Below are positions 6,138 through 26,809 of a stretch of DNA of 57,190 nucleotides, one piece after another (position 1 is the stretch's first letter; every line of letters starts with the position of its first letter). The notes below the pieces were generated by a model. It did no database searches and had not been told where the DNA came from. It was given only the letters and a program-made list of their open reading frames with translations. Made by a program: the position numbers and the translations under genes. The stretch is from Rhodospirillaceae bacterium (lineage in GTDB: Bacteria; Pseudomonadota; Gammaproteobacteria; Burkholderiales; SG8-41): the NCBI GenBank assembly GCA_050260255.1, contig JBLNBW010000298.1, positions 1-57,190 on the forward strand. Reading direction: 5' to 3'.

Positions 6138-6157
6138 CCGCGCTCCCGCCTCTCCCG

Positions 6158-8354: not shown

Positions 8355-8554
8355 GATTTCACAATGCGCGCTCATCATGCTGTAACACCGACGGCAACGC
8401 TCGTCATATCTTGCGCAGAAGCGCCAATTCTTGCGATGGCGGAAAATACCGTGCAAATGTCACATACGACGACCTTGTGCGCGTCTTCGTCTTCATCTAA
8501 CGTTTTCGCGCAGTCGCACCACGTCAGTGCCGCGGGTCCTGTTCATAATTTGAG

Positions 8555-9448
8555 ATGCCGATCATCACGCCGGAGGTCATGAGCGCCTGGCTCAAGCTGC
8601 AGCCGGAAGCGTCGAGTGCCGGGCTTCACACCAAGGTAGGCGCTGCCCTGTGGGACATCCGTGTTCCTGCCGGAGGCGCGTGGGAAGGGGCCACGCAGCG
8701 CAGCACCACGAGCCACGTGCTGTGGTTCGTGGTCAAACCGTTCTTCCTGGAGTACGAGGTGGACGGGCGCGCGATGTGGTCCGGCCCTGTGGAGCGACAC
8801 GCCTCGCACCTCCTGCGCGCCGGCGAGCGCGCGCGCGGTATATTCCACGGACCCGGACAGGTGCTGCACTTGTACATACCGCACGAGCTGCTCGCCGAGG
8901 TGTCCCGGGACTTCGGCCATCCGGCGTTCGAGCTCGTCGATCCGGGCTTGCGGGTCGAGCCGGACCTGGCGCCGATCGAGAAGCTCATCACGAATCTCAT
9001 CGCCAAAAGGGACCGCCTCGCGCAGCTCGAGCTGGACAATGTCGGCATCATGGCGTGCGCGCGGCTGCTGCGTTGCTGGTCCACGCGGCAGCCCGCGAGC
9101 GAGATGAAAGGAGGCCTGGGCGCCTGGCAGGTGAAGCGCGCAATCACCTTCCTGATGGACCATCTGCAGGAGGACATCAGCCTTAGCGACGTCGCATCGC
9201 ACGTCGGCCTGTCGCAGTTCCATTTCAATCGTGCATTCAAGCGCAGCGTCGGTGTGTCGCCGCATCGCTATCTTCTTCTGAAGCGCATCGAGAAGGCGAA
9301 AGAGTTGCTCGCGCACGGCACGCTCAGCATCACCGAGATCGCGGAGCGCGTCGGCTACACCGATCCCAACCAGCTCGCCCGTGCGTTCCGAAAAGAGGTG
9401 CTTACGACGCCCAGCGAGTACCGCCGGCGATATCGGGGCAGGCCGTAA
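8555..9448 (+). CDS. AraC-family transcriptional regulator
   Basis: The C-terminal double HTH reads LSDVASHVGLSQFHFNRAFKRSVGVSPHRYLLLKRIEKAKELL...ITEIAERVGYTDPNQLARAFRKEVLTTPSEYRR. Confidence 0.85.
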   Translation: MPIITPEVMSAWLKLQPEASSAGLHTKVGAALWDIRVPAGGAWEGATQRSTTSHVLWFVVKPFFLEYEVDGRAMWSGPVERHASHLLRAGERARGIFHGPGQVLHLYIPHELLAEVSRDFGHPAFELVDPGLRVEPDLAPIEKLITNLIAKRDRLAQLELDNVGIMACARLLRCWSTRQPASEMKGGLGAWQVKRAITFLMDHLQEDISLSDVASHVGLSQFHFNRAFKRSVGVSPHRYLLLKRIEKAKELLAHGTLSITEIAERVGYTDPNQLARAFRKEVLTTPSEYRRRYRGRP

Positions 9449-9800
9449 ATGCTGCGGATCGCACCATAAGGATGCCGGAGCTGCTCGCGGTCACCGCGAG
9501 CCTACGGCCCGAGCGCCATCGTCGCAGAAGCGGACGAACAGGATACGCGCTCGCTGGTGCGAAGACGGTCGAGCTGTTCACCTCGCTGCTGGTCGCCATC
9601 GCCAAGCGCGCCGATCATGCGGCGTCGCGCGGTGGGTACACGCGGCGCGCAGCGCTGTCGGGCTTCGGAGACACTCGGTCAGTACGCGCACTCTTGCCCA
9701 AGCTTGCGTGCTAAAGTCGCGTCGAGCCGACCGGTTACCACGCTGGATTCGGCCACAAGAATCCAGCAGCATCCTCCTGCTACAAACCGTTCTTTAATCA

Positions 9801-11375
9801 ATGCAAGTTCAGCCTTACAGCATAGGGACACCTCAGGTTGTCGCGAACGGCAACGTGTTGGCGGACGAGATCTCGCGCGAGCTCTTCGACCGCGCGGCCA
9901 TCGGCATGGCGCTCGCGGAAGTGGCCACGCGGCGCTTTCTCTGGGTCAATCGCAAGCTTTGCGAGATCACCGGCTACACGAAAGAAGAGCTGCTGCAGCG
10001 GACCGCCGTCGATCTTACGCATCCGGACGATCGCGAAATGGACCGCGTCACGTTCGCTCAGTACCTGCGCGGCGAGATCGATCAGCGCATCGTCGAGAAG
10101 CGCTACATCCGGAAGGACGGCAGCGTCGTGTGGGTACGCATCACGACGAGCATCGTGAACATCCGCGGGCGGCAATGCTCCTACGGCGTCACGGAAGACA
10201 TCTCGGACCGCCGACGCGCCGAGCTCGAGTTGCGCGAAGCCGACCGGCGCAAAGACGAGTTCCTCGCCATGCTCGCGCACGAGCTGCGCAACCCGCTTGC
10301 CGCCATCCGCAACTCCGTCGAAGTGATGCGCGCCTCATGTGGCGGCGACCAGCAGATGGGGCGCGTGCAGGAAATCGTGGATCGCCAATCGCAGCATCTC
10401 GCACGGCTCATCGACGATCTGCTCGACGTCGCGCGCGTCGCGACCGGCAAAGTGGCGCTGCGCAAGCAGCGTCTCGCCGTGGCCGACATCGCCGCCTGCG
10501 CGCTGGAACGCGTGCGCCCGCTGGTCGTCGCGCGGGAGCAGGAGCTGGTCACCCGCATTCCGGCCGAGCCGATACACGTGCTGGGCGACGAGCTGCGCCT
10601 CATACAGATCGTCGACAATCTGCTCAACAATGCCGCGAAGTACACCCACAACAAGGGCCGCATCGAGCTCGCGGTCGAGCGCAGCGGCGGCGAGATTTGC
10701 ATCCGCGTGAGCGATACCGGCGTCGGCATCGCGGCCGACGTGCTTCCCCACGTGTTCGGCCTCTTCAAGCAGGCGGACGGCTCGCTCGCGCGCACGAGCG
10801 GCGGGCTCGGCATAGGGCTCACGATCGTGAAAGACCTGGTGGACATGCACGGCGGCCGCATCAGCGTGCACAGCGTCGTGAACGAAGGCAGCGTCTTCGA
10901 AGTGCGTCTGCCGGAAGCGCCGGCGCCCGTGCTGCCCAAGAGCAAGGAAGGCGCCGAAAACGTCGATCCCATGCACATCCTGATCGTCGAAGACAACGAG
11001 GACGCGGCCGAAAGCCTCGCGTTGCTGCTCGAGCTCGGAGGGCATGCCGTGCATACCGCGCCCGACGGCATGTCCGCGCTCAATATGCTGGAGCACCGCA
11101 CGCCCGACGCGATACTGGTCGACATCGGCCTGCCCGGCATGAGCGGCTACGAGTTCGCGCAGAAAGTGCGAGAAAGCGACCGCGCCGGCCGCACGCTGCT
11201 CGTCGCCATCAGCGGTTACGGCTCGGCCGAAGACAAGGCGAAATCCGCGCAGGCGGGCTTCGACGCGCATCTCGTGAAGCCGGTCGATTTTCGCGCGCTC
11301 GCGACGCTGCTCGCTTCGCACAGCGAATCCGGCACGCCCGGCCGCGGATCCGGGAATGCGATCGCGTCGTTCTGA
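9801..11375 (+). CDS. PAS-containing hybrid sensor histidine kinase/response regulator
   Basis: 524 aa. Contains a PAS domain (ITGYTKEELL...KDGSVVWV) and the H-box FLAMLAHELRNPLAAI. The ATPase motifs are NLLNNAAKY / SDTGVGI / GGLGIGLT. The C-terminal REC domain reads ILIVEDNEDAAE...LVDIGLPGMSGYE...HLVKP. Confidence 0.9.
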   Translation: MQVQPYSIGTPQVVANGNVLADEISRELFDRAAIGMALAEVATRRFLWVNRKLCEITGYTKEELLQRTAVDLTHPDDREMDRVTFAQYLRGEIDQRIVEKRYIRKDGSVVWVRITTSIVNIRGRQCSYGVTEDISDRRRAELELREADRRKDEFLAMLAHELRNPLAAIRNSVEVMRASCGGDQQMGRVQEIVDRQSQHLARLIDDLLDVARVATGKVALRKQRLAVADIAACALERVRPLVVAREQELVTRIPAEPIHVLGDELRLIQIVDNLLNNAAKYTHNKGRIELAVERSGGEICIRVSDTGVGIAADVLPHVFGLFKQADGSLARTSGGLGIGLTIVKDLVDMHGGRISVHSVVNEGSVFEVRLPEAPAPVLPKSKEGAENVDPMHILIVEDNEDAAESLALLLELGGHAVHTAPDGMSALNMLEHRTPDAILVDIGLPGMSGYEFAQKVRESDRAGRTLLVAISGYGSAEDKAKSAQAGFDAHLVKPVDFRALATLLASHSESGTPGRGSGNAIASF

Positions 11376-11379
11376 CGCG

Positions 11380-14169
11380 TCAGCCGGCGCGGGTCCGATC
11401 TTCCGCAGCGGCCACCGGCAGGTGAATCTGCAGCAGGCCGAAAAGCTCGTGCGGATCGACGGGCTTGGTGACGATAGCGCGTAATCCCGTTTTTTTCAGA
11501 TCGGCCCGTGCCAATCCGTCGTTGCGTCCCGTATAGAGGATGACGGGCAGCTCCGGGCGTATCGCCATGAGCTTGCGCGCAAGCTCCATCCCCGTCATGC
11601 GCGGCATCATTTGGTCGGTGATGACGAGATCGCACCGCGCCGTACCGCTCGAGAGCAGCGCCAGCGCATCGACTGCATTCGCGGCCTGCATCACTTCCAG
11701 CCCCCAGCTCTCGAGCAGATCGCCCATGAATGTAGCCACAGCGCGCTCATCGTCGACGACCAGCACGCGGCCGGCGAGGCGCCGCAACGGCGCACGCCGC
11801 GTGGCGGCCGGCCGAACGTCGTCCTCTTCCTGACCATCGGGTAACGCAGGAAACAACACGCAAAAGCGGGTGCCTTTCCCCACCGCCGTCTCGACGACGA
11901 CGTGGCCGCCCAGCTCATGCACGATGCCATGGACGCTCGCGAGCCCCATGCCGCTGCCCTTGCCCACTTCCTTGGTGGTAAAGAACGGCTCGAAGATGCG
12001 GTCTACGATCTCCGGAGCGATGCCGGGCCCGTCGTCCTCTACGCACAGCTGCACGTACTCGCCGCTGCCGCGCTTGCGGCACGCCGTGCACACGTGCTCG
12101 CCCGGCGGCGCAGGCGCAACGCTCACGCGTATGGTGCCCGTGCCAGCAATGGCATCGCGGGCGTTTAAGCAGAGGTTGAGCAGAATCTGGTCGAGCTGCA
12201 CCGGATCGAGCATCACGGCGCACACTTCGCGCTCGAGCTTGAGCTCCATGCCGATGGCTGCGGGCAGCGACGACGAAAAGAGGTTCACTGATTCCGCGAC
12301 GAGCGCCGACAGCGCGACGGGACGCGGCTGCCCGCGCTGACCGCGGCTGAACATCAGCATCTGCTGTATGAGGTCCCGCGCGCGCTCGCACGAGAACTGC
12401 GCCTGCTCGAGATACTTGCGCAGCCGCACCTCGGTCTGCGCGGACGGCTGCTCGGACGCGAGCACGACGTAGCCCATGATGCTCGTGAGCAGGTTGTTGA
12501 AGTCGTGCGCGATGCCGCCGGTGAGATGACCCAGCGCTTCCATCTTCTGCGCCTGCCGCAGCGCCTGCTCGGCATGCTTGCGCTCGGTGATCTCACGCGT
12601 GAACGCGAGCAGCCGGCGCCTGCCCGCGATCACCGCAGGGCGCAGCACCACTTCATCCCAATGCAGGCTGCCATCCTTGTTGCGCCGGTGCCATTCCATG
12701 CGCACCGTGTGGCCGGCCTTCGCCTCCTGCAGCCGCTTCGCCGCTTCCGCCGCAGTGTACGGGTGCTCGCCGGAGCTCACCTCGGCGATGGAAAGGCGCC
12801 TGAACTCCTCGTGGCTATAGCCGTACACCTCGCACGCGCGCTGGTTCACGTCGATCAGCGCGCCGCTGTCCCAGTCGTGCACGAAGATCGCGTCCTCGCT
12901 TGCTTCGAAGATCGCGCGGTAGCTCGCTTCCGATGCGCGCAGCGTTTCCTCGGCGCGCTGGCGCTCGAGCTCCGCGGCGGCACGCACGGCGAAGATCTTC
13001 AGTATCGACTCGACGAACTCGGCGTTCATCATCTTCGCGCGCGACACGACCGAGATGATGCCCAGCGGGTCGCCGTTCCCGCCGCGCAGCGGGAAGCCTG
13101 CGTAGCTTTCGAATCCCATGCGCTTGAAATCGACGTCCGCGGGAAACAGCTCGCTCACGGCCGACGGATAAATGCGAAACGATTGACCCATCACCGTCTC
13201 GCACGGCGTGCCGGCGAGCGGATAATCGAAGTTCTCGCGCACTTCGCCGTCGAGAAAAAATGCGTGCATGCGCATGTGGCACTGATCGCCGCCTTCGGGC
13301 CACGGCGCTGCGATGAATGCCGCCTCCATCCCGAGGATCGTCGCGAGGTAGCGTACGAGTTCCTGGAACACCGTCGCGCCTTGTGCACTGGAGACGGCGA
13401 GCGCCGCGCTGGTGAGGGCGTCCTGGGTGCGCTTGCGGTCGGTGATGTCGGTGGCGATGCCGCATATCGCGTACGGCTCGCCGTCGGCGCCGAACAACGG
13501 AAACTTGAAGGACAGGAACGTGCGCTGCTGGTGCGCGACCTCCGCCCCCACTTCGAATTCGATCGCGCTGCGCTCTCGCAGCACCTGCGCGTCGTTCGCG
13601 CGGAAATGCTGCGCGACTTCCGGCGGCCACAGCTCGTGATCGGTATGCCCCACGATCTGCTCGGCCGGCACGCGTACGACGCGCTCCAGCTCGCGATTGG
13701 CGAAGACGTAGCGGCCTTCCAGGTCCTTCACGAATATGACGGCCTTGGTGTGATCGAGCACATCCTGCAGCCGCGACAGACTCTCGGGCTTGATCCACCC
13801 GGCCTGCTGCAAGTTGGAAAGGTCGTGCACGTGCGCGACGAGCGTATCGTTCGCCGTGGCCGAAAGATGCACGAGCGCATGGACGCGCCGGCCGCCGGCA
13901 TTGCGAAATTGCCACGGGAACCACTGCGGCAAACCACTCTTCGCGGCCTGCGTGCGCCGTTGCCAGCGCTCGCGCGAGAACGCGCCGTCCGCCTGCACCT
14001 GCGGACAGACCTCGAGCAACGGCCGGCCGACGAGCGCCTCGCGGGCCTGCCCCATCATGCGGCAGAAGCGCTCGTTGCACGCCTGGACGGTATCGCCGAG
14101 CACGACGAGGCCGTGTGTGGCTATGCGGAGCGGCGCCTCCGTCATGTCGCGATCATCGGTGCGATTCAC
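11380..14169 (-). CDS. multi-PAS/GAF hybrid sensor histidine kinase/response regulator
   Basis: 929 aa with several PAS-like blocks (FVKDLEGRYVFAN..., IFVHDWDSGALIDVN...) and a GAF-like block. The H-box is GGIAHDFNNLLT and the ATPase motifs are EDDGPGI / GSGMGLA. The C-terminal REC domain reads VLVVDDERAV...ITDQMMPRMTG. Converges on the previous kinase with a 4-bp gap. Confidence 0.9.
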   Translation of the reverse strand: MNRTDDRDMTEAPLRIATHGLVVLGDTVQACNERFCRMMGQAREALVGRPLLEVCPQVQADGAFSRERWQRRTQAAKSGLPQWFPWQFRNAGGRRVHALVHLSATANDTLVAHVHDLSNLQQAGWIKPESLSRLQDVLDHTKAVIFVKDLEGRYVFANRELERVVRVPAEQIVGHTDHELWPPEVAQHFRANDAQVLRERSAIEFEVGAEVAHQQRTFLSFKFPLFGADGEPYAICGIATDITDRKRTQDALTSAALAVSSAQGATVFQELVRYLATILGMEAAFIAAPWPEGGDQCHMRMHAFFLDGEVRENFDYPLAGTPCETVMGQSFRIYPSAVSELFPADVDFKRMGFESYAGFPLRGGNGDPLGIISVVSRAKMMNAEFVESILKIFAVRAAAELERQRAEETLRASEASYRAIFEASEDAIFVHDWDSGALIDVNQRACEVYGYSHEEFRRLSIAEVSSGEHPYTAAEAAKRLQEAKAGHTVRMEWHRRNKDGSLHWDEVVLRPAVIAGRRRLLAFTREITERKHAEQALRQAQKMEALGHLTGGIAHDFNNLLTSIMGYVVLASEQPSAQTEVRLRKYLEQAQFSCERARDLIQQMLMFSRGQRGQPRPVALSALVAESVNLFSSSLPAAIGMELKLEREVCAVMLDPVQLDQILLNLCLNARDAIAGTGTIRVSVAPAPPGEHVCTACRKRGSGEYVQLCVEDDGPGIAPEIVDRIFEPFFTTKEVGKGSGMGLASVHGIVHELGGHVVVETAVGKGTRFCVLFPALPDGQEEDDVRPAATRRAPLRRLAGRVLVVDDERAVATFMGDLLESWGLEVMQAANAVDALALLSSGTARCDLVITDQMMPRMTGMELARKLMAIRPELPVILYTGRNDGLARADLKKTGLRAIVTKPVDPHELFGLLQIHLPVAAAEDRTRAG

Positions 14170-14279: not shown

Positions 14280-14984
14280 TCAGGGAACGAACATGTAGCC
14301 GGCGCCGCGCACCGTGCGCAGCGCCCGCGGCTGCTCCGGATCGGCCTCGACCTTGCGCCTTAGCCGCGCAATCCGGATGTCGATGGAGCGGTCGAACGGC
14401 TCCCACTCGCGATTGCGCGTGAGCGTGAGGATCTGGTCGCGCGTGAGCACCTTGTTCGGATGGTCCGTGAAGAGCTTGAGCAGCTCGAACTCCATGCTGG
14501 TGAGCGGCACTTCCTGACCGTTCGCATCGAGCAGGCGATGCGCCGCAACGTCGAGAAAGCAGCGGCCGACGGGGACGTGCGCCGAAGACGTCGCCTCGGG
14601 CTGCGCCGCGCGCGACTGCATCCGCCGCATCACGCTCTTCAGACGTGCAAGGAGCTCGCGCGGATCGAAAGGCTTGGTAATGTAATCGTCGGCGCCGATT
14701 TCGAGACCGACGACGCGGTCGACCACCTCGCCAGCAGCGGTAACCATGATGATGCCGACGTCGTGACGCTCGCGAAGATGGCGTGCGAGGGTGAGGCCGT
14801 CTTCGCCCGGCAGGCGCACGTCGAGCAGCACGACGGTCGCACGATGATGCGCCATGATGTCGCGCATCTCCGCGCCGCAGCCTGCCTGGTGCACTTCGTA
14901 GCCGTGGCCTTGGAGATACTCCGCGATCATCTCGCGCACGTTGCGGTCATCTTCGACGATCAGAACGCAGCCGTTGTTCGCCAT
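14280..14984 (-). CDS. OmpR/PhoB-family response regulator
   Basis: 234 aa. The REC domain reads VLIVEDDRNVRE...LLDVRLPGEDG...DDYITKPF. The winged-helix C-terminus reads LTSMEFELLKLF...VLTRDQIL...DRSIDIRIARLRRK...IRTVRGAGY. Confidence 0.9.
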   Translation of the reverse strand: MANNGCVLIVEDDRNVREMIAEYLQGHGYEVHQAGCGAEMRDIMAHHRATVVLLDVRLPGEDGLTLARHLRERHDVGIIMVTAAGEVVDRVVGLEIGADDYITKPFDPRELLARLKSVMRRMQSRAAQPEATSSAHVPVGRCFLDVAAHRLLDANGQEVPLTSMEFELLKLFTDHPNKVLTRDQILTLTRNREWEPFDRSIDIRIARLRRKVEADPEQPRALRTVRGAGYMFVP

Positions 14985-15152
14985 GGCGGTCTCCCCGGGG
15001 AGCGAAATTTTATATCGCTTTAGCCGCTACAGACCAGAAACAAACTGTTTCACCGCTGACATCGCCCCGATACCGGCGCTGCCTAGACTGCGAATCATCG
15101 AGAAAGCGGCAAGCCGCCGCGATCCGAGACCAGCCGAGAAAAGGAGCGACTA

Positions 15153-16127
15153 ATGCAAAATGCAGTCCTGCTTCAAACCCATGCAAGTTTCGACGGCGAT
15201 TTGCCGGCCGCGCGCCGTTACGCTCAATGCATCGAAGTCTCCAAGCGTGTGCGCTGGGACATCGACCGCGATGTGATCCGCGGGCGCACGTTCGACTTCG
15301 ATCGCAAGTTCCTGCCCGACGGCCTGTCGAAGATCGCCGAGCTCGATTTCCTGAGCGCCGAAGAGCGGCGGTTCCTCTCGCATATTCAGGGGCGCACTTA
15401 CGCCAACATGTTCGGCATGGTGGAGCGATACATCGGAGCCAAGATGCTGGAGGTGGCGCAAAGCCACAGCCTGGGCGACCAGACGGCGCTCGAGGCCCTG
15501 GTGCGCTTCACCGACGAGGAGCTCAAGCACCAGGAGCTCTTCCGCCGCATCGAGCGGCTGGCAGCCCGCGGCATGCCTGCAGGCTACGTTTTCCGGCCAC
15601 GGGCGAATGACGTCGCAAGCGTGGTGCTCGGCAAGTCCACCTGGGCGGTGCTCGCCGTCACGTGCATGATCGAGCTCTTTACCCAGACCCATTACCGGGC
15701 GAGCATCGGCCGCGACACCGGTCTTTCCGAGCTCTACAAGGACGTGTTCCTGTTCCACTGGCGCGAAGAATCGCAGCACGCGATCCTGGATGAACTCGAG
15801 TGGCGACGCCACGATGCAACGCTCACCGACGCGGAACGCGACGCCGCCGTGAACGACCTCATCGCGCTGGTGGCGGCCTTCGACGGCGTGGTCGAGCAGC
15901 AGGCCGACGCGGACGCAAGCTACTTCCTTGCTTCGTGCGGCCGCGCGCTGTCCGTGGAGCAGTCCCGACGTGTGCGGGGCACCGTCCTCAAAGCGTACCG
16001 CTGGCAATACATTCTGTCCGGCGTGCAGGAGCAACGATTCCACGATCTGCTCGAAGCGCTCACCACGCCGGAGCAGCGTGCACGTATCGGCGAAGCCCTG
16101 GTGCCCCTCGTCGAAAGCCAGAGCTGA
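15153..16127 (+). CDS. ferritin-like diiron-carboxylate protein (AurF-like oxygenase fold)
   Basis: 324 aa with AAAGGAG upstream. Two ExxH motifs (DEELKHQE and WREESQHAILDE) plus upstream acidic helices (SAEERRFLSHIQG, MIELFTQTHY) are typical of diiron oxygenases. Family assignment is from motifs only. Confidence 0.65.
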   Translation: MQNAVLLQTHASFDGDLPAARRYAQCIEVSKRVRWDIDRDVIRGRTFDFDRKFLPDGLSKIAELDFLSAEERRFLSHIQGRTYANMFGMVERYIGAKMLEVAQSHSLGDQTALEALVRFTDEELKHQELFRRIERLAARGMPAGYVFRPRANDVASVVLGKSTWAVLAVTCMIELFTQTHYRASIGRDTGLSELYKDVFLFHWREESQHAILDELEWRRHDATLTDAERDAAVNDLIALVAAFDGVVEQQADADASYFLASCGRALSVEQSRRVRGTVLKAYRWQYILSGVQEQRFHDLLEALTTPEQRARIGEALVPLVESQS

Positions 16128-16152
16128 CATCAACCCTGTCGAGAGCCCCGTC

Positions 16153-16503
16153 ATGCATCGCCTGCAATGGCTGTCGCAATCGGCCCGGACCTTCGGGCCT
16201 TATCTGCTGATCGAAATGCTGCTGCCCGGTGGAACGCTGTTCGCGCTCCTGCTGTGGCTGTCGCAGCGCATGCGCCAGCAGCGCGCCATGCCGTGGCAGG
16301 CGATGGCACAATCGGCTCCGACGGCACTCGTCCAACCTCGCGACATGCCACACCCTCTTCTTCACACAGGAGGAAACATCGATGCAACACGTGCTGCTTC
16401 CCGCCGCGCTCTGTGCTCTGTCCGTGCTGCCGCTCGCCGCTGGTGCCGCGCAAGGCGACCCGGCCCGATCCCAGCAGATAGACCGAGGCAGATATCTGGT
16501 TAA
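16153..16503 (+). CDS. possible small membrane protein (uncertain end)
   Basis: ATG lies 25 nt after the diiron gene. MHRLQWLSQSARTFGPYLLIEMLLPGGTLFALLLWLSQRMRQQR has one clear TM segment. The distal half overlaps the cytochrome c gene and looks like out-of-frame sequence. Confidence 0.3.
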   Translation: MHRLQWLSQSARTFGPYLLIEMLLPGGTLFALLLWLSQRMRQQRAMPWQAMAQSAPTALVQPRDMPHPLLHTGGNIDATRAASRRALCSVRAAARRWCRARRPGPIPADRPRQISG

Positions 16504-16870
16504 AATCGCCGGCTGCAACGACTGCCACACGCCCGGCTATGCGCAAACCGGAGGGAAGGTGCCGGAAGCGCAATGGCTCACGGGCGATGCGCTGGGCTGG
16601 CGCGGCCCCTGGGGCACGACGTATCCGGCTAACCTGCGCATTTACATGTCCGGCCTGTCCGAGACGCAATGGGTGCAGCGCGCGAAGACGATGGAAACGC
16701 GCCCGCCGATGCCCTGGTTCGCCTTGCGCGACATGAGCGAGCAGGACTTGAAGGCGCTCTATCACTATGTGCGCTCGCTGGGTCCGGGCGGCAAGGCAGC
16801 GCCGGCTTACGTGCCCCCCGGCAAGGAGCCGCGCACGCCGTACGTGCAGTTCCCGGGATCACCGCAGTAA
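16382..16870 (+). CDS. monoheme c-type cytochrome, exported
   Basis: Internal ATG of ORF 16229..16870. The signal peptide is MQHVLLPAALCALSVLPLAAGAAQG. A heme-binding CNDCH (CxxCH) motif is present, with a downstream PPMPWF segment as a candidate Met ligand region. Confidence 0.8.
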   Translation: MQHVLLPAALCALSVLPLAAGAAQGDPARSQQIDRGRYLVKIAGCNDCHTPGYAQTGGKVPEAQWLTGDALGWRGPWGTTYPANLRIYMSGLSETQWVQRAKTMETRPPMPWFALRDMSEQDLKALYHYVRSLGPGGKAAPAYVPPGKEPRTPYVQFPGSPQ

Positions 16871-16887
16871 AACGCAACGAGGAGCAT

Positions 16888-17844
16888 ATGAACAAGAGTG
16901 GAACCAGCCCGGCGGCATTGCTGGAGAAGATGATGCTCGTGCGGGCCTTCGAAGATCAGAATCGCGCCCTGGTCGCTGCCGGCAAAGGTGCCGGCACCTG
17001 CACCTCGACCGGCCAGGAAGCGGCGGCCGTGGGCGCCGTGTGTGCGCTCACCTGCGACGACTACATACTCACCAATCATCGAAGCGCGGGACATCTGCTC
17101 GCACGTGGTGCGGACCCCGGGCGGCTGCTCGCGGAGATCCTGGGCAAGGCGACCGGCTACTGCAAGGGCAAGAGCGGCTCGCTGCACATTTCTGTGAAAG
17201 AGCTGGGCGTGGTCCTCACCTCGACCATCGTCGGCGGGGAGCTTTCGCTCGCCACCGGCGTCGCGCTCTCGGTGGCGATGGAGAAAAAGCGCGGCATCGT
17301 CGCCTGCTTTTTCGGCGACGGCGCGGCGTGCGAAGGGATATTCCACGAGTCGGTGAATCTTGCGGCCGTGTGGCAGCTGCCCGTCCTCTACCTGTGCGAG
17401 AACAACCAATGGCAGGCGTACGTCCACCGGAAGGAAACGATGCTGGTAGACAGCATCGCGACACGCGCCTCGGGATACGGCATCGAAGGCGTTACGGTAG
17501 ACGGCAACGACGTGCGGGCGGTGTACGCCGCAACGCGCGAGGCCGCCGAGAAGGTGCGCAGGACGCGCAAGCCGATGCTGCTCGAGCTCGCCACCTATCG
17601 CCTCAAAGGTCATTACGAGCCGGATGATCAGTCGTACGTCGATCCGAGCGAGCTCGCCGCGTGGTCGCGCCGCGATCCGATCGAGATGGCAAAGGCCGCG
17701 CTGCTGAAGGAAGGCCTGGTCACGCCTACCGATATAGAGCTCATGCAGGCGCGCACGCGCAAAGCCGTCGAGGAAGCGCTCGCGTACGCACAGCGCTCGC
17801 CGTTTCCCGATGCGAGCGAGCTCAACACCGACGTATATGCCTGA
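16888..17844 (+). CDS. TPP-dependent 2-oxoacid/acetoin dehydrogenase E1 component, alpha subunit
   Basis: GGAG lies 4 nt upstream of the ATG. MLVRAFEDQ...STGQEA...LTNHRSAGHLLARG...GKSGSLH and the TPP motif FFGDGAACEGIFHESVNLAAVWQLPVLYLCENNQW are present. Confidence 0.9.
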   Translation: MNKSGTSPAALLEKMMLVRAFEDQNRALVAAGKGAGTCTSTGQEAAAVGAVCALTCDDYILTNHRSAGHLLARGADPGRLLAEILGKATGYCKGKSGSLHISVKELGVVLTSTIVGGELSLATGVALSVAMEKKRGIVACFFGDGAACEGIFHESVNLAAVWQLPVLYLCENNQWQAYVHRKETMLVDSIATRASGYGIEGVTVDGNDVRAVYAATREAAEKVRRTRKPMLLELATYRLKGHYEPDDQSYVDPSELAAWSRRDPIEMAKAALLKEGLVTPTDIELMQARTRKAVEEALAYAQRSPFPDASELNTDVYA

Positions 17845-17854
17845 GGACACCGCC

Positions 17855-18820
17855 ATGCCGCAAATGAACGTCAACGAAGCGATAGGGCTCGCGCTCGCCG
17901 AAGAGATGCGCCGGGACAGCCGCATCCTCATGTTCGGCGAAGGGGTCGCCACCAAGCGCGCGGATCTCGTGAAGGAATTCGGCGCCCAGCGCGTGCGCAA
18001 CACGCCGCTTGCCGAGGGCATCATCGCGGGCACCGCGGTCGGGGCCGCCGCCACGGGTCTGCGCCCGGTGGTCGATCTGCTGTTCGTGCCCTTTCTCACC
18101 TACGCCATGGATGAGATCGTCAACAGCGCGGGCAAGCTGCGCTATATCTCGGGCGGCCAGTTCTCCTTTCCGCTGGTCGTCATGGCGATGACCGGCACCG
18201 GGTGGACGGTCGGTGCTCAACACAATCACAACCTCGAGGCGTGGTTCGTGCACAGCCCGGGGCTCAAGGTCGTCATGCCCTCCACCCCCGAGGATTACTA
18301 CGGCCTGCTCAAGTCCGCCATACGCGACGACAATCCCGTGATGTTCTTCACCGACATGACGCAAGGCTACGAGCAAGGCATGGTGACGCCGAGCGAGCAC
18401 GGCATCCCGCTGGGCACGGCTGCCGTGCGGCGCGTCGGCAAGGACGTCACCATCGTCTCGTACTCGAAGGCCGTTCACGCATGCGTCAAGGCGGCGCAGT
18501 TGCTCGAAGCCGCAAACATCTCCGCCGAAGTAGTCGATCTGCGCACCTTGAAGCCCCTCGACGAGGGCACGGTCCTCGCATCGGTGCGCAAGACCGGCCG
18601 CGTGCTCATCGTCCACGAGGCAAGCGGCATGTGCGGCGTAGGCGCGGAGATCGCAGCGCTGGTGGCGGAGAAGGCGTTTCGTGCGCTGAAGGCGCCGGTG
18701 ATGCGACTTACGGGCCCGGATGCGCCCACGCCGTCGAGCTACGCGCTCGAGCAGGCTTATCTGCCGCAGCCGGAAGGCATCGTTGCCGCCGTGCGCACGC
18801 TCCTCACGTCGGAGCGGTAA
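17855..18820 (+). CDS. TPP-dependent dehydrogenase E1 component, beta subunit
   Basis: Starts 10 nt after the alpha-subunit stop. MNVNEAIGLALAEEMRRDSRILMFGEGV...VRNTPLAEGIIAGTAVGAA...AQHNHNLEAWFVHSPGLKVVMPSTPEDYYGLLKSAIRDDNPVMF is transketolase-like pyrimidine-binding and C-terminal domain sequence. Confidence 0.9.
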   Translation: MPQMNVNEAIGLALAEEMRRDSRILMFGEGVATKRADLVKEFGAQRVRNTPLAEGIIAGTAVGAAATGLRPVVDLLFVPFLTYAMDEIVNSAGKLRYISGGQFSFPLVVMAMTGTGWTVGAQHNHNLEAWFVHSPGLKVVMPSTPEDYYGLLKSAIRDDNPVMFFTDMTQGYEQGMVTPSEHGIPLGTAAVRRVGKDVTIVSYSKAVHACVKAAQLLEAANISAEVVDLRTLKPLDEGTVLASVRKTGRVLIVHEASGMCGVGAEIAALVAEKAFRALKAPVMRLTGPDAPTPSSYALEQAYLPQPEGIVAAVRTLLTSER

Positions 18821-18837: not shown

Positions 18838-19902
18838 CTAGTCGCTGCCGCCTTCTACGGTGTGGCGCTGCGCGCGCCACCGCAGCATGCCGCCCGGCAG
18901 GTTCGCCACCTTATCGAATCCGGCTTTCTGCAGCAGCACCGTCGCCTGCGCGGAACGCGCACCCGAGCGGCACACGGCGACGATAGGCCTGTCCTTCGAC
19001 AGCCTGTCGCAGGAAGCGCGCAGCGAGCCGAGCGGCATCAGCATCGCACCCGGAATGCGGCCGAGCGGTCCTTCGAATTCGCCCGGCTCGCGCACGTCGA
19101 CGATCTGCACGTCCGTGAGATGCTCTTCGACCCATTGCGGCAGCACTTCCACGATGCCCGCAAACGTGTACGTGAGCGGCGCCCAATCTTTCACGACGGG
19201 CGCCTCGCCCTTGGGACGGCCGCATTGCAGATTCGCCGGCACGGCGATGTCCATCTGCTTCGGATGCGGAAGCCCGAGATGCTTCATGTAGCCGACGAAG
19301 TCGTCCTTCAGTACGTGCCGGTTGAGCCGCGGATTGAAGCGCTTCTCTTCGCCCACGCTCGTCACCGTAAGGCCGCGATAATCGTGAGCCGGATAGATGA
19401 GACACGCGTCGGGCAGCGAGAAGATCTGCTCGTTCACCGATTCGTATAGAGCGTCGGCGCTGCCCTCCTGGAAGTCGGTCCGGCCGCACCCCCTGATCAA
19501 CAAGGCATCGCCGGTGAATGCCATGCCGCGATCGTCGAGCACGTACGTCATGCAGCCGTTGGTATGGCCGGGTGTCGCTCGCGCTTCCAGCCAGCGCTCG
19601 CCGAATGCGATCCGGTCGGCGGGGTCGAGCACGCGGTCGGCACCCTGCGCGCCGCTTGCGCGCGAGATCCCGATGCGGCTGCCCCACCGCTCGCGCAGCA
19701 CGGACGCTGCCGTGACGTGATCGGCATGCACGTGCGTTTCCAGCGTCCAGACGAGGGTGAGGCCGAGCTCCTCGAGCAGCGCGGAGTCGCGCCGCGCCTG
19801 CTCGAAGACCGGATCGATGAGCACCGCGGTGGTCGACCGCTCGTCGGCAAGGAGATAGGTGTAGGTCGAAGACTGCGGATCGAACAATTGTCGGAAGAGC
19901 AT
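18838..19902 (-). CDS. persulfide (sulfur) dioxygenase ETHE1-like MBL-fold domain fused to a rhodanese domain
   Basis: Start at MLFRQLFDPQSSTYTYLLAD, with GGAGG 5 nt upstream. The metal motif is ETHVHADH...PGHT. The C-terminal rhodanese domain has the active-site loop IVAVCRSGARS. Confidence 0.85.
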   Translation of the reverse strand: MLFRQLFDPQSSTYTYLLADERSTTAVLIDPVFEQARRDSALLEELGLTLVWTLETHVHADHVTAASVLRERWGSRIGISRASGAQGADRVLDPADRIAFGERWLEARATPGHTNGCMTYVLDDRGMAFTGDALLIRGCGRTDFQEGSADALYESVNEQIFSLPDACLIYPAHDYRGLTVTSVGEEKRFNPRLNRHVLKDDFVGYMKHLGLPHPKQMDIAVPANLQCGRPKGEAPVVKDWAPLTYTFAGIVEVLPQWVEEHLTDVQIVDVREPGEFEGPLGRIPGAMLMPLGSLRASCDRLSKDRPIVAVCRSGARSAQATVLLQKAGFDKVANLPGGMLRWRAQRHTVEGGSD

Positions 19903-20035
19903 GGGCGCCTCCATGCGTTTACCGGAACCATATTAAAGCGTGAAGCGCGCCGTGACGAGCGCCGCGACGGGGTTACGCGACGGTACGCAATTCTGTAACC
20001 TCGCTGCAGGAGACCACTCGAGGAGGAGCCGTACC

Positions 20036-23108: not shown

Positions 23109-23555
23109 TTACTGGTGCTGCACCGATGGCGGCGGCGCGGGTGTTGCGCCGAAGAACACGCCGCGCGTCAGGAACGTGTAATCGGCTTCCAGCGCTCCGA
23201 TGGCGAGAAGCACGAGGAGCAGCAGCGGCGGCACGACGATGGCGTAGACCAGCGCCAGCCGCTCCCATAGCATGTGCATGAAGACCGCGACGATAAGCCC
23301 CGCCTTCAGCAGCATGAACGTGACGATCAGAAACCACCGCAGCAGACCCTGCACGTGGAAATAATCCACGAGGTACGAGGCGATGCTCAGCACGAACAGC
23401 AAGCCCCAGATCTTGAAATAAATACCGAGCGGATGCTGCTGGCCCTGCGCATGCGACGCAGCCTCGCGTTGCGCATGGTCGACCGACCGCCCGGCTCCGT
23501 GGGCCAGATGCTCGGCGTCGGCATGTTCCAGGTGCTGTCGTTCCACAGGCGTCAT
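23109..23555 (-). CDS. cytochrome c oxidase subunit IV-like small membrane protein
   Basis: Only the last 148 aa of ORF 23109..24176 look real: MTPVERQHLEH...GIYFKIWGLLFVLSIASYLVDY...FLIVTFMLLKAGLIVAVFMHM. Three TM segments lie immediately downstream of subunit III. Confidence 0.6.
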   Translation of the reverse strand: MTPVERQHLEHADAEHLAHGAGRSVDHAQREAASHAQGQQHPLGIYFKIWGLLFVLSIASYLVDYFHVQGLLRWFLIVTFMLLKAGLIVAVFMHMLWERLALVYAIVVPPLLLLVLLAIGALEADYTFLTRGVFFGATPAPPPSVQHQ

Positions 23556-23563
23556 GATGGGGC

Positions 23564-24286
23564 CTACCAGAGATAGAAGAACGCGAAGATGAAGACCCAC
23601 ACGAGGTCGACGAAGTGCCAGTACAGACCCATGATTTCGACGATCTCGTAGTTGCCTCGCCGCCCCGTGAGGAAACCGGGCCGCTCGTGGTCCAGGTCCC
23701 CGCGCCAGACCTTCATCGCCACGATGATCAGAAAGATCACGCCTATCGTCACGTGCGTGCCGTGAAAACCCGTAATCATGAAGAAGGACGAGCCGAACTG
23801 CGCGGCTCCCCAGGGATTCGCCCACGGCCGGACGCCTTCGAGGATGAGCTTGGTCCATTCGAACGCCTGCATGCCGACGAACGTGGCGCCGAGCGCCGCG
23901 GTAGCGAGCAGCAGAACGCACGTCCTCCTGCGGTCTTTGCGGTAGCCGTAATTCACCGCAAGCGCCATGGTGCCGCTGCTGCTGATCAGCACGAAGGTCA
24001 TGATGGCGATCAGCAGCAGGGGAACGCTCTGCCCGAACAGAGTCAGCGAGAAGACCTCGCTGGGATTGGGCCAGGGCACGGTGGTGGATCCTCGCACGGT
24101 CATGTACGAGATCAGGAAGCTGCCGAAGATGAACGTGTCGCTCACGAGGAAGATCCACATCATCGGCTTGCCCCACGGCACGTCCTTGAACAACCGTTGA
24201 TCCGAGGAGGCGTCGGCGATGATGCTCTGCAGGCCTTCCGCCCGCGGCGGCGAACCTGCTGTACCGGTCATGTCATGTGGCGCCAT
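23564..24286 (-). CDS. heme-copper oxidase subunit III
   Basis: 240 aa. FMITGFHGTHVTIGVIFLIIV...MGLYWHFVDLVWVFIFAFFYLW is the classic subunit III C-terminus. Confidence 0.85.
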   Translation of the reverse strand: MAPHDMTGTAGSPPRAEGLQSIIADASSDQRLFKDVPWGKPMMWIFLVSDTFIFGSFLISYMTVRGSTTVPWPNPSEVFSLTLFGQSVPLLLIAIMTFVLISSSGTMALAVNYGYRKDRRRTCVLLLATAALGATFVGMQAFEWTKLILEGVRPWANPWGAAQFGSSFFMITGFHGTHVTIGVIFLIIVAMKVWRGDLDHERPGFLTGRRGNYEIVEIMGLYWHFVDLVWVFIFAFFYLW

Positions 24287-24302
24287 GGATGCGGGAACCT
24301 CT

Positions 24303-24965
24303 TTACGTTGACATCAGCAGAGCGAACAGAACCAGCCAGACGAGCAGCAGGAAGTGCCCGTAGATCGCGCACAGCTCGATGCCGAGGCGTACCGTCGCGA
24401 GTTCCACGCCGCGCGACACCTTCGCCGTGGTTCGCGCCCAGGCCACCAGCCCGCCCAGCAGATGCACGCCATGGACCGCGGTCAGCAGATAAAAGAACGC
24501 GTTGGCCGGATTCGAGTTGAGGAACGCCCCGGCATCGTTCAACTGCTTCCAGACCAGAAGCTGACCGGCGAGGAAAGCCACGGTGAGGACTCCTCCGGCC
24601 ACCAGGGCGCGCCTCACCCCCTCGACGTCCGCGCGACGTGCGGCGACGACCGTCCACTGCATCACCCCGCTGGTTACGATCAGCAGGCCTGTATTCCACG
24701 TGAGCAGGGTGGGCTTACGCAGCGGGGTCCAATCGCCGAAGTGCATACGCATCGCGTATGCGCTGATGAACAGCGCGAAAACCGACGTCACGACGGCAAG
24801 AAAGACCCACAAGGCGGTTTTCGCCGGCGGCCGTGACAGCACGGCGCCGTGCACGTCCCGCGACGACGCCTGTGCCACCCAGGGCTGCACGTTGACGCTC
24901 TGCCGGAACAGCCACCACAGGATGGCTGCCATGAGGCAGGCGAGGAAAACCAGGGTGATCGTCAT
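24303..24965 (-). CDS. second heme-copper oxidase subunit III-like protein
   Basis: 220 aa. FFYLLTAVHGVHLLGGLVAW...AIYGHFLLLVWLVLFALL is subunit III family but shorter and divergent. Confidence 0.8.
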   Translation of the reverse strand: MTITLVFLACLMAAILWWLFRQSVNVQPWVAQASSRDVHGAVLSRPPAKTALWVFLAVVTSVFALFISAYAMRMHFGDWTPLRKPTLLTWNTGLLIVTSGVMQWTVVAARRADVEGVRRALVAGGVLTVAFLAGQLLVWKQLNDAGAFLNSNPANAFFYLLTAVHGVHLLGGLVAWARTTAKVSRGVELATVRLGIELCAIYGHFLLLVWLVLFALLMST

Positions 24966-24983
24966 GTCGCCACCTCGAATGCC

Positions 24984-26765
24984 CTATGACTTGACCCACG
25001 CGCCGGCCGCGACCTCGCCGGGCGGCACATTCTGCGGGATGAAATCGTGCTTCACGCCCGGGACGCCGTAGTCGTACGCCCAGCGATAGACCGCCGGAAG
25101 CGTCTTGCCGAAATTGCCATGCTTGGGCGGCGTATCCGGCGTCTGCCATTCCAGCGTCGTGGCGTGCCAGGGGTTGCCGCCTGCGGGCCTGCCCCGGAAA
25201 TAGCTCGACACGAGGTTGTAGAAGAACACGATCTGGGCGAAGCCCACGATGAGCGCCGCGAGCGTGATCGCGACATTGAGCGAATGCGCCGAATCGGGGA
25301 TGAAGTTGGTGCCGCCGATGGCGTAATAGCGGCGCGGAACGCCCATGAACCCGAGATAGTGCATCGGGTAATAGATGGCGTAGCTGCCCACGAACGTGAC
25401 CCAGAAGTGGAACTTGCCGAGCGTGTCGTTCAGCATGCGCCCGGTGATTTTCGGGTACCAGTGATAAATCGCGCCGAACACGACGAGGATGGGGGCGATC
25501 GCCATGACCATGTGGAAATGCGCGACGACGAACATCGTATCGGACAGCGGCAAATCCACGACGACGTTGCCGAGGAAGAGGCCCGTCAGCCCTCCGTTGA
25601 CGAACGTGAAAATGAATCCGATCGCGAACAGCATCGGCACCGTGAGGTGGATGTTGCCCCGCCACAGCGTGAGGATCCAGTTGTAGACCTTGATCGCCGT
25701 CGGAATGGCGATGATCAGCGTCGTCGTCGCGAAGAAGAACCCGAAATACGGGTTCATGCCGCTCACGTACATGTGGTGCGCCCAGACGATGAAGCTCAAG
25801 CCGCCGATCACGAGAATCGCCCACACCATCATGCGATAGCCGAAGATGTTCTTTCTCGCATGCGTGCTGATCAAGTCCGAGACGATGCCGAACGCGGGCA
25901 GCGCGACGATGTACACCTCGGGGTGTCCGAAAAACCAGAACAGATGCTGGAACAGGATCGGGCTGCCGCCGCTGTAGCCCGTGGCCTGGCCCTTGGAGAC
26001 GAGCGCCGGCATGAAAAAGCTCGTGCCGAGCGTCAAATCGAGCAGCATCATGATGGCGCTCACGAACAGCGCCGGAAACGCAAGCAGCGCGAGTATCGTC
26101 GCCATGAAGATGCCCCAGACGGTGAGCGGCAGACGCATCATCGTCATGCCGCGTGTGCGCGCCTGCAGCACGGTGACGACGTAGTTCAAGCCGCCCATCG
26201 TGAAGCCGATGATGAAGAACGCGAGCGAAACGAGCATCAGGATAATGCCCCCGTTCGCCCCCGGCGTGCCGTCGAGGATCACCTGCGGGGGGTAGAGCGT
26301 CCACCCGGCGCCCGTCGGCCCGCCCGGCACGAAGAAGCTCGCGGCGAGCAGCAGCACCGCGAACAGATAGACCCAATAGCTCAACATGTTGACGTACGGG
26401 AACACCATGTCGCGCGCGCCGACCATCAGCGGGATCAGATAATTGCCAAAGCCGCCGAGGAACAACGCCGTGAGGAGGTAGATCACCATGATCATGCCGT
26501 GCATGCTGACGGCCTGCAGGTAATTGGACGGATCGATGAACGCGAAGCGGTTCGGAAATCCGAGCTGCAGCCGCATCACCCACGACAGCACCAGCGCCAC
26601 CACCCCGATGCCGATCGCGGTGAGCGCGTACTGCACGGCGATCACTTTCGCGTCCTGGCTCCAGATGTATTTGCCGATGAACGTTTTCGGATGGTAGAGC
26701 TCGACCTCCGCAACTTCGGCGGGCGGAGCGTAATCCGTTTCGTCATGCGCAACGTAAGTCGACAT
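24984..26765 (-). CDS. heme-copper (aa3-type) cytochrome c oxidase subunit I
   Basis: 593 aa. SMHGMIMVIYL...FPYVNMLSYW...WFFGHPEVYI...VWAHHMY...VAHFHMVM are the canonical subunit I histidine-ligand blocks. Confidence 0.95.
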   Translation of the reverse strand: MSTYVAHDETDYAPPAEVAEVELYHPKTFIGKYIWSQDAKVIAVQYALTAIGIGVVALVLSWVMRLQLGFPNRFAFIDPSNYLQAVSMHGMIMVIYLLTALFLGGFGNYLIPLMVGARDMVFPYVNMLSYWVYLFAVLLLAASFFVPGGPTGAGWTLYPPQVILDGTPGANGGIILMLVSLAFFIIGFTMGGLNYVVTVLQARTRGMTMMRLPLTVWGIFMATILALLAFPALFVSAIMMLLDLTLGTSFFMPALVSKGQATGYSGGSPILFQHLFWFFGHPEVYIVALPAFGIVSDLISTHARKNIFGYRMMVWAILVIGGLSFIVWAHHMYVSGMNPYFGFFFATTTLIIAIPTAIKVYNWILTLWRGNIHLTVPMLFAIGFIFTFVNGGLTGLFLGNVVVDLPLSDTMFVVAHFHMVMAIAPILVVFGAIYHWYPKITGRMLNDTLGKFHFWVTFVGSYAIYYPMHYLGFMGVPRRYYAIGGTNFIPDSAHSLNVAITLAALIVGFAQIVFFYNLVSSYFRGRPAGGNPWHATTLEWQTPDTPPKHGNFGKTLPAVYRWAYDYGVPGVKHDFIPQNVPPGEVAAGAWVKS

Positions 26766-26809
26766 CGACCTTTCCTCCTCCGTGATGCTTCATGAGATCT
26801 CGAGTCTCA

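Follow-up and report, generated by a model that had tools for sequence, protein, structure and literature searches.

The DNA analysed here, hereafter the window, is a stretch of 57,190 nucleotides from a Rhodospirillaceae bacterium (contig JBLNBW010000298.1, here C298), and the system in question is a cluster of five genes on one of its strands (15153-18820). As read from the open reading frame (ORF) listing and inspection of start codons, the cluster encodes, in this order, a diiron protein, a small membrane protein, a cytochrome c, and the alpha and beta subunits of a thiamine pyrophosphate (TPP)-dependent E1 enzyme (together E1ab). Comparison with relatives suggests a mosaic operon, in which one regulated promoter would drive three modules that travel separately in other genomes, and we consider this explanation probable. 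The features of the locus, with protein lengths in amino acids (aa), are as follows.

11380 to 14169, minus strand: hybrid sensor kinase, cytoplasmic, with several PAS domains, HisKA, HATPase_c, and a receiver (Pfam); encoded behind the response regulator in the same orientation
14280 to 14984, minus strand: OmpR/PhoB-family response regulator (Pfam Response_reg and Trans_reg_C), divergent from the operon
15010 to 15015, minus strand: TTATAT, probable -10 element of the regulator gene, which aligns with ATTATA of relatives
15028 to 15074, plus strand: tandem boxes with a spacing of about 10-11 bp, predicted and probable sites of the OmpR-type regulator at the place of a -35 element (alignment A2)
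15084 to 15089, plus strand: TAGACT, probable -10 element of the operon, 63 nt upstream of the diiron start codon; T67, A68, and T72 are invariant in alignment A2
15153 to 16127, plus strand: AurF/CmlI-like diiron protein, 324 aa (PF11583 below the gathering score, AlphaFold2 with Foldseek, and ligand set); ribosome-binding site AAAGGAG at 15140-15146
16153 to 16503, plus strand: ORF of a small single-pass membrane protein, 116 aa (alignment A3 of homologues), whose 3' part overlaps the cytochrome c gene by 122 nt
16382 to 16870, plus strand: class I monoheme cytochrome c, 162 aa, putatively exported (PF00034); AGGAGG upstream
16888 to 17844, plus strand: E1 alpha, TPP-dependent, 318 aa (PF00676)
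17855 to 18820, plus strand: E1 beta, 321 aa (PF02779 and PF02780)
18838 to 19914, minus strand: convergent gene for a metallo-beta-lactamase (MBL)-fold and rhodanese protein (Pfam, NCBIfam), which marks the 3' end of the operon and lies outside the system

The intergenic gaps measure 25, 17, and 10 nt, and no intergenic terminator-like site was detected in the cluster; the E1 alpha gene contains the two sites that were detected, a number lower than that from shuffled sequences. An earlier reading of this DNA from its letters alone (the sequence-only reading) had proposed an operon of five co-oriented genes with gaps of 10-25 nt, ending at 18820 against a convergent gene, and both the layout and the end are borne out. 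The arrangement points to co-transcription of the five genes. A search for sequencing runs containing this DNA listed four DNA runs from soil, with small shares of its sequence words, and no RNA run. A simple promoter consensus scan gave one match within the cluster, no more than shuffles give; the conserved promoter became apparent only through comparison of relatives.

Alignment A2, which comprises nine regions between a regulator gene and its first cargo gene from different genomes or contigs, has 14 invariant columns. The boxes in the window read CTACA (15028-15032), GAAACA (15037-15042), GTTTCA (15047-15052), GACATC (15058-15063), and GATACC (15069-15074), and their consensus across the promoters is CTACA, GA(A/T)ACA, GTTTCA, GA(C/A)A.., and G(A/T)(T/A)AC. 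At the probable -10 element of the regulator gene, ATTATA (TATAAT on the minus strand) occurs in eight of the nine compared intergenic regions and ATTATG in the ninth, the window's minus-strand reading being ATATAA. Across the fetched loci, 2.33 Mb in all, a regular expression for the promoter had 13 distinct matches, 11 of which lie upstream of diiron or (small membrane protein-)cytochrome c genes (L003/L029, L005/L022, L018/L021, L081, L084/L206, L085, L211, L216, L231, and the window); the remaining two (L290 and L291) are stretches of the window's own genome that were chosen because the pattern had already been detected there. The same search over the fetched loci placed the pattern before E1ab in none of the other genomes. 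Since the boxed promoter never precedes E1ab elsewhere, E1ab would come under this control only through being appended to the cytochrome c gene.

The genes around the promoter are conserved in a corresponding manner. The top NCBIfam match of the regulator is OmpR, at 239 bits and under the equivalog cut-off of 331, and its orthologues (61-81% identity) are divergent from diiron or small membrane protein-cytochrome c genes in relatives. Kinase orthologues (49-76% identity) adjoin diiron or cytochrome c orthologues in L021, L022, L023, L027, L028, L031, L083-L085, L206, L211, and L231. An adjacent orthologue of the OmpR-type regulator or the hybrid kinase, or of both, is found at 7 of 16 diiron loci, and one or the other also adjoins cytochrome c, at the same-genus loci L083, L084, and L085 and at L211 and L231. 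Together with the boxed promoter, this adjacency supports the two regulators that had been named as likely on sequence alone, and the OmpR-type regulator and the hybrid kinase likely control the operon.

Three look-alike tandem-box promoters were seen elsewhere in the window's own genome, at C69:4284 (+), C179:1218 (-), and C150:5748 (+), an example being GAAACAAAGTGTTTCGCGCCTGACAT. From ORF translations read by eye, the genes after these sites resemble ones for a small membrane protein and then a TctC-like binding protein, for a resistance-nodulation-division (RND) adaptor-like protein, and for a 612-aa exported protein. These sites may belong to the same or a paralogous regulon.

The conserved part of the small membrane protein covers approximately residues 1-45 (16153 to about 16290), and the six sequences of alignment A3 agree in 21 invariant columns, the core being GPYLLVELLLPGGTLLALLLWLSQ. 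The homologues have lengths of 49, 63, 67, 68, and 78 aa and show no overlap with cytochrome c where a complete cytochrome c gene follows. The small membrane gene precedes cytochrome c in five relatives, directly upstream in L206, L211, L212, and L213, and in L231 with a 160-nt gap and then an N-terminally cut cytochrome c frame. Judging from these alignments, the small membrane ORF is a real gene, and the 116-aa ORF of the window appears to be this gene read on into the cytochrome c gene. The protein has no match among the Pfam and NCBIfam families. By the same comparisons, the small membrane gene and cytochrome c appear as a fixed pair and as the most constant cargo of the regulator.

The cytochrome c scores 29.8 against Cytochrom_C (PF00034; cut-off 21.3) and carries its haem site at C45NDCH49 and its Met ligand in an invariant PPM110P; C45, C48, H49, and M110 are invariant in the 14 sequences of alignment A4. 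A hydrophobic, signal-like N-terminus, read by eye, suggests that the protein is exported and periplasmic. Among solved structures, it comes closest to single haem domains in the cytochrome subunits of membrane-bound flavoprotein and quinoprotein dehydrogenases (7w2j_C, E 2.5e-10; others to 1e-4). A paralogue with 52% identity is found in the window's own genome at C129:3818-4330 (L112), among copper-handling genes, which encode a cupredoxin, a CusF-like protein, and a P-type ATPase for heavy metals. In other lineages (L076:7860-8549; metagenome loci L214, L223, L256, L257, L259, and L268), this cytochrome c family is adjoined by a 229-aa protein with a weak hemerythrin (HHE) match, which is another kind of diiron protein in the position that the AurF-like one has in the window.

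The diiron protein scores 25.4 bits against AurF (PF11583), below the gathering score of 29.6. The AlphaFold2 model (predicted local distance difference test, pLDDT, 95) has a ferritin-like fold, and its top Foldseek matches are CmlI (5hyh), AurF (3chu/2jcd), and R2lox (4xb9), with template modelling (TM) scores of 0.44-0.58 and a probability of 1.0; a sequence search of solved structures gave no meaningful match. Two ExxH motifs had been noticed on sequence alone, and they prove to be part of a fuller 4-Glu/3-His ligand set present in the sequence: E91, E123xxH126, E174, and H202xxxE206xxH209. The ligand columns are kept in only 20-35 of 43 diverse homologues (alignment A1, P0121-P0269), so many relatives may not bind metal, and part of the family may be non-catalytic. 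In the same alignment, the first ExxH is intact in only about half of the homologues, and many are without at least one metal ligand.

Diiron orthologues occur in 14 other genomes among a sample of 200 genomes of the same order, a count that includes G026, which was excluded from later steps; 16 diiron loci were fetched with wide flanks. E1ab was found at none of these 16 loci and a cytochrome c orthologue at two (L031 and L012). The genes downstream of the diiron orthologues vary across the 16 loci and include a methyltransferase, a BBE-type flavin adenine dinucleotide (FAD) oxidase with EamA, a GNAT protein, and an alpha/beta hydrolase, and no biosynthetic genes lie near the diiron gene of the window. 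Given this distribution, the diiron gene appears to be accessory cargo of the regulon.

The third module belongs to a widespread lineage. E1 alpha matches E1_dh (PF00676) at 254 bits, and E1 beta matches Transket_pyr (PF02779) at 110 bits and Transketolase_C (PF02780) at 142 bits, all well above the cut-offs. E1 alpha falls under both NCBIfam pyruvate dehydrogenase (PDH) E1-alpha equivalogs (TIGR03182, 296.2 versus 393.85; TIGR03181, 232.4 versus 411.35), and for E1 beta only a broad subfamily model, NF006667, is passed (333 versus 321). E1 alpha contains GDG143-145...NN172-173 for TPP and His242 in TYRLKGH; E1 beta contains Glu54 and His123, the latter aligned with the ELH active-site His of Geobacillus stearothermophilus 3duf_B. 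We take His242 and His123 to be the residues that canonical E1s use for the reductive acylation of lipoamide.

A scan of one genome per species with E1 alpha confirmed 343 relatives, of which 80 loci with 61-74% identity were kept. The carriers are Noviherbaspirillum, Herbaspirillum, Azoarcus, Thauera, Aromatoleum, Accumulibacter, Azospirillum, Geothrix, Holophagales, Thermoanaerobaculia, and Vicinamibacterales; within the order sample, an E1 beta orthologue (64-71% identity) occurs in only 4 of the 200 other genomes, the next best match being 50% identical. A tblastn gene panel was run over the 80 loci with flanks of 8 kb on either side, and all counts out of 80 below refer to it unless a distance is given. 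E1 beta was matched at 78 loci, whereas E2, E3 (three queries), the diiron protein, and the small membrane protein were matched at none. As a control, the same E2 query was run on 25 paralogous E1ab loci (41-49% identity) with flanks of only 1.5 kb, and it detected E2 immediately next to E1 beta in 16 of them. Nine of these 25 paralogue loci, all from the order sample, gave no E2 match within 1.5 kb. The lack of E2 and E3 next to E1ab that the sequence-only reading had pointed out is therefore confirmed and extends to the whole lineage, and a whole-genome Pfam search likewise gave no PF00198 or PF02852 match on C298. On these comparisons, E1ab forms a distinct, widespread orthologue group without E2 in Betaproteobacteria, Azospirillum, and Acidobacteriota.

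It could be argued that this is a conventional E1 that borrows its lipoyl-E2/E3 from elsewhere, for example from a PDH or branched-chain complex, and that cytochrome c is only a co-regulated neighbour. The search for orphan E2/E3 genes that had been proposed earlier found, in the window's own genome, the E2 catalytic domain PF00198 on C215, C345, and C250 and E3-type PF02852 on C216, C154, and C54. One complete E2, with lipoyl, E3-binding, and catalytic domains, has no adjacent E1 (C215:17601-18851; L109:5602-6852), and this gene, the three E3-type genes, an assembly split over 350 contigs, and the canonical TPP motif with both catalytic His residues would all suit such borrowing. Three results argue otherwise: E2/E3 are absent from all 80 orthologue loci, E1 alpha lies below both PDH equivalog cut-offs, and orthologues of the C215-type E2 follow a different, ordinary E1ab paralogue pair in G055 and G118. 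The orthologue carriers G156, G130, and G074 have no close copy of this E2, their best matches being 34-39% identical. Because of this pairing with another E1ab paralogue and the distant matches in orthologue carriers, we rejected the C215 E2 as a dedicated partner in trans, and we hold borrowing in general to be quite unlikely. The neighbours of the C215 E2 gene encode an amidohydrolase, an OsmC-like protein, and a rhodanese.

How the modules recombine is seen most clearly in the closest relatives, whose layouts come from a metagenome scan with cytochrome c (identities are relative to the window proteins). L212 carries diiron (72%), small membrane protein, cytochrome c (81%), and E1 alpha (89%) in the order of the window; L210 has cytochrome c, E1 alpha, and E1 beta; and L213 has the small membrane protein and cytochrome c. 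In L231, the kinase and regulator genes are divergent from small membrane protein, cytochrome c, and E1 alpha genes with no diiron gene, and in L211 they are divergent from diiron, small membrane protein, and cytochrome c genes, which are followed by an unrelated reductase gene and no E1ab. In L270, L276, and L277, the genes after cytochrome c belong to a second E1ab lineage (40% and 46% identity to the window subunits), and no E2 match was obtained. With many of the 80 metagenome contigs measuring no more than 1-3 kb, a gene missing from them carries little weight. The layout with diiron protein, cytochrome c, and E1ab was seen only in very close relatives, namely L212 and probably also a 6173-bp contig, which is listed as the longest for 95%-identical copies of both the diiron protein and E1 alpha. 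These layouts indicate that the cluster is a mosaic of three modules: E1ab, the diiron gene, and the small membrane protein with cytochrome c.

The same layouts bear on a single pathway of all three enzymes, in which E1 would hand an activated two-carbon unit or electrons to the diiron oxygenase and cytochrome c would mediate; the sequence-only reading had put forward a two-carbon transfer feeding the diiron enzyme as one option. The tight abutment of the genes in the window, the order repeated on L212, and the 6173-bp contig shared by the two 95%-identical copies are what this pathway would predict. L231 combines cytochrome c and E1 alpha without a diiron gene, and L211 combines diiron and cytochrome c genes without E1ab; moreover, a diiron homologue is found at 0 of 80 E1ab loci and E1ab at 0 of 16 diiron loci, whose downstream genes vary. 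A single pathway is largely refuted by these comparisons, and we consider it highly improbable. Of the conserved synteny of diiron protein, cytochrome c, and E1ab that the pathway implied, the link between cytochrome c and E1ab stands, in 20 of 80 loci, whereas the three-part layout is confined to very close relatives.

This link deserves separate consideration. A cytochrome c of the window's family lies within 2.3 kb of E1ab in 20 of 80 orthologue loci and is co-oriented in 19 of the 20. The carriers are 10 Acidobacteriota, 7 Betaproteobacteria, 1 Gammaproteobacterium, and 2 Alphaproteobacteria, and the association proposed from the window is hence recurrent and spans two phyla. Cytochrome c directly abuts E1 alpha or E1 beta in L121, L186, L191, L178, and L176, and the link is also present in G156, G118, G345, and G308 and in the contigs L210, L212, and L231. 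As judged from gene neighbourhoods, the link is real but not universal.

Other neighbours of E1ab recur as well. A 160-aa protein with a faint PNPOx likeness and a 445-aa PNPOx_N-GAF protein stand beside E1ab in 34 of 80 loci (L113-L192, e.g. L168:5986-7832 and L164:5889-7700). Like the small membrane protein, the 160-aa protein matched no Pfam or NCBIfam family, and Atlas shows only unnamed clusters; the C-terminal domain of the 445-aa protein is without family assignment. The two look like a flavin- or haem-sensing regulator pair. A multi-pass membrane protein of 127-141 aa directly follows E1ab in 16 of 80 loci (e.g. L118:9978-10403), except that it precedes E1ab in L076 (8589-8972); it shows weak similarity to COX1/DUF2871, contains the motif PVHAHVN (HxH), and may bind haem. 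In Noviherbaspirillum, the neighbours of E1ab are cbb3 oxidase genes and an FNR/CRP-type regulator. The window's own genome holds no homologues of the PNPOx-GAF, 160-aa, and Ack-Pta neighbours, and its only match to the 141-aa membrane protein is weak and partial (59 aa, E 8e-4). A homologue of the convergent MBL-rhodanese gene occurs in only 2 of 80 E1ab orthologue loci.

These neighbourhoods raise the question of whether E1ab is an E2-independent 2-oxoacid:acceptor oxidoreductase, in which hydroxyethyl-TPP would be oxidised by a non-lipoyl acceptor as in PoxB, on an E1 scaffold, with either flavin or haem proteins or the quinone pool relaying the electrons to the periplasmic cytochrome c. 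In its core, this is what the sequence-only reading had proposed. The contrast between orthologue loci, where E2 and E3 are each absent, and paralogue loci, where E2 is frequent, fits such an enzyme, as do the 19 loci with a co-oriented cytochrome c, the five in which it abuts E1ab, and the second E1ab lineage that follows cytochrome c without an E2 match. The PNPOx-like pair and the COX1-like membrane protein would be possible redox neighbours. However, E1 is cytoplasmic and the cytochrome periplasmic, and the window's own genome, having neither the PNPOx-GAF nor the 160-aa gene and only the partial 141-aa match, encodes no such conduit. Furthermore, the PNPOx-GAF protein resembles a sensor or regulator, and its place is taken in the window by a two-component system; the His residues that interact with lipoamide are retained as well. 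We regard this explanation as rather unlikely.

The mosaic operon is the explanation we favour, and it would work as follows. The PAS-rich cytoplasmic hybrid kinase would phosphorylate the divergent OmpR-type regulator, which would bind the tandem GA(A/T)ACA-like boxes that replace a -35 element and activate the promoter with the -10 element TAGACT. The resulting transcript would run from the diiron gene through the small membrane gene, cytochrome c, and E1 alpha to E1 beta and end against the convergent gene. In the loci compared, the AurF-like diiron gene comes first behind this promoter either in place of the other cargo or in addition to it, and its product would act on an unrelated substrate. 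E1ab is most likely a cytoplasmic, pyruvate-like 2-oxoacid decarboxylating enzyme without a dedicated lipoyl-E2, which would be co-expressed with a periplasmic electron carrier for redox- or oxygen-responsive respiratory adjustment. Any coupling between E1 and the cytochrome would be indirect, via the membrane or the quinone pool.

Several points weigh against this explanation. Both co-transcription and binding of the regulator were deduced from sequence only. With respect to the cytochrome c link, 60 of 80 E1ab orthologue loci are without a family cytochrome c within 8 kb, the same-genus E1ab orthologues G257, G237, and G210 stand without one, and of 29 cytochrome c loci at the family level a single one has E1ab next to it. 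No signal peptide is seen in E1ab, and cytochrome c is putatively exported; since the operon encodes no membrane electron conduit, direct transfer from E1 to a periplasmic haem is topologically implausible. The conservation of His242 in E1 alpha and His123 in E1 beta leaves room for an E2 supplied in trans. Finally, gene calls in relatives came from a GC3-based picker and tblastn panels, which small or divergent genes may escape, and related genomes are not independent samples.

A bolder claim about the lineage is that E1ab represents a respiratory dehydrogenase of a new kind, which has given up lipoyl-E2/E3 and delivers the electrons of 2-oxoacids to a dedicated periplasmic c-type cytochrome by way of small flavin or haem proteins or the quinone pool. 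Taken together with its route, we judge this claim unlikely. If it were true, electrons would enter micro-oxic or anaerobic transport chains of Betaproteobacteria, Azospirillum, and Acidobacteriota at a point not recognised before. An E1ab lineage that occurs in at least two phyla without nearby E2/E3 and recurrently stands beside genes for a c-type cytochrome and flavin/GAF-type proteins is of interest in this respect, and its cultured carriers (Noviherbaspirillum, Thauera, Azoarcus, Azospirillum, and Geothrix) make the function of E1ab directly testable. The boxed promoter, in turn, assigns a defined predicted regulon to an uncharacterised PAS-kinase/OmpR pair of soil Burkholderiales. The mosaic structure also shows that adjacency in a single genome would have misled about the diiron enzyme.

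Beyond the operon, the window contains, 4 kb away and on the minus strand (23109-28213), a cluster for a caa3-type haem-copper oxidase, made up of COX1, two genes like COX3, and a subunit II that carries two fused cytochrome c domains. It is possible that this oxidase is an acceptor for the operon cytochrome c. Upstream of the operon, the stretch 3522-11375 is densely packed with sensory genes; their products are a REC-PAS-GAF-GGDEF-EAL protein, an AraC-type regulator, and two kinases, one of the CHASE3-PAS type and the other (9801-11375) the second PAS hybrid kinase.

Each protein of the system belongs to a known superfamily. In the full-text literature, as far as it was accessible, we found no description of an E2-less E1ab lineage with a cytochrome c and PNPOx/GAF neighbourhood, nor of this regulator's boxed promoter or the pairing of a diiron protein with a two-component system. 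Within that portion of the literature, the E2-less lineage with its neighbourhood and the boxed promoter appear to be new, and they are best appreciated beside the systems they resemble.

PhoB/OmpR-type activators use tandem direct repeats that stand in for the -35 element at their target promoters. The locus is similar in having a regulator with receiver and winged-helix domains and four to five boxes, spaced by about 10-11 bp and ending about 10 bp before the -10 element; it differs in its own box sequence and in a cytoplasmic kinase with several PAS domains, and its binding is predicted only. The diiron protein shares with the AurF/CmlI arylamine N-oxygenases and R2-like ligand-binding oxidases a ferritin-like fold and the ligand pattern E, ExxH, E, HxxxExxH, which we take to be the AurF signature. 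However, it has only 14-16% sequence identity to them and remains under the Pfam gathering score, and its gene is without biosynthetic context and sits under a two-component regulator. The cytochrome c has the class I fold, the CxxCH site, and the MP(W/x)F-type Met ligand of the subunits of fructose dehydrogenase (7w2j_C), glucose dehydrogenase (8hdd_B), and alcohol dehydrogenase (8gy2_B); unlike these three-haem, membrane-associated subunits, it is a free-standing, single-haem protein of 162 aa, and its neighbour enzyme is cytoplasmic.

E1 alpha and beta are textbook components of lipoyl-dependent multienzyme complexes. Compared with the E1 alpha2beta2 of the pyruvate, branched-chain 2-oxoacid, and acetoin complexes (for example the human branched-chain enzyme 1dtw and the G. 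stearothermophilus PDH 1w85/3duf), the E1ab of the window has the same domains, the GDG-X26-NN motif, the cofactor-activating Glu of the beta subunit, and both active-site His residues, whereas it is encoded without nearby E2/E3, falls below the PDH equivalogs, and has cytochrome c and, across its lineage, PNPOx/GAF proteins as neighbours. PoxB is a TPP-dependent, lipoyl-E2-independent pyruvate:quinone oxidoreductase that passes electrons to a respiratory acceptor, and lipoyl-E2-free decarboxylation of this kind is what the bolder reading of E1ab proposes. As functional analogues, PoxB and pyruvate oxidase are nevertheless single-chain enzymes of another TPP family with an FAD domain, and a Pfam search found no flavin domain in E1ab.

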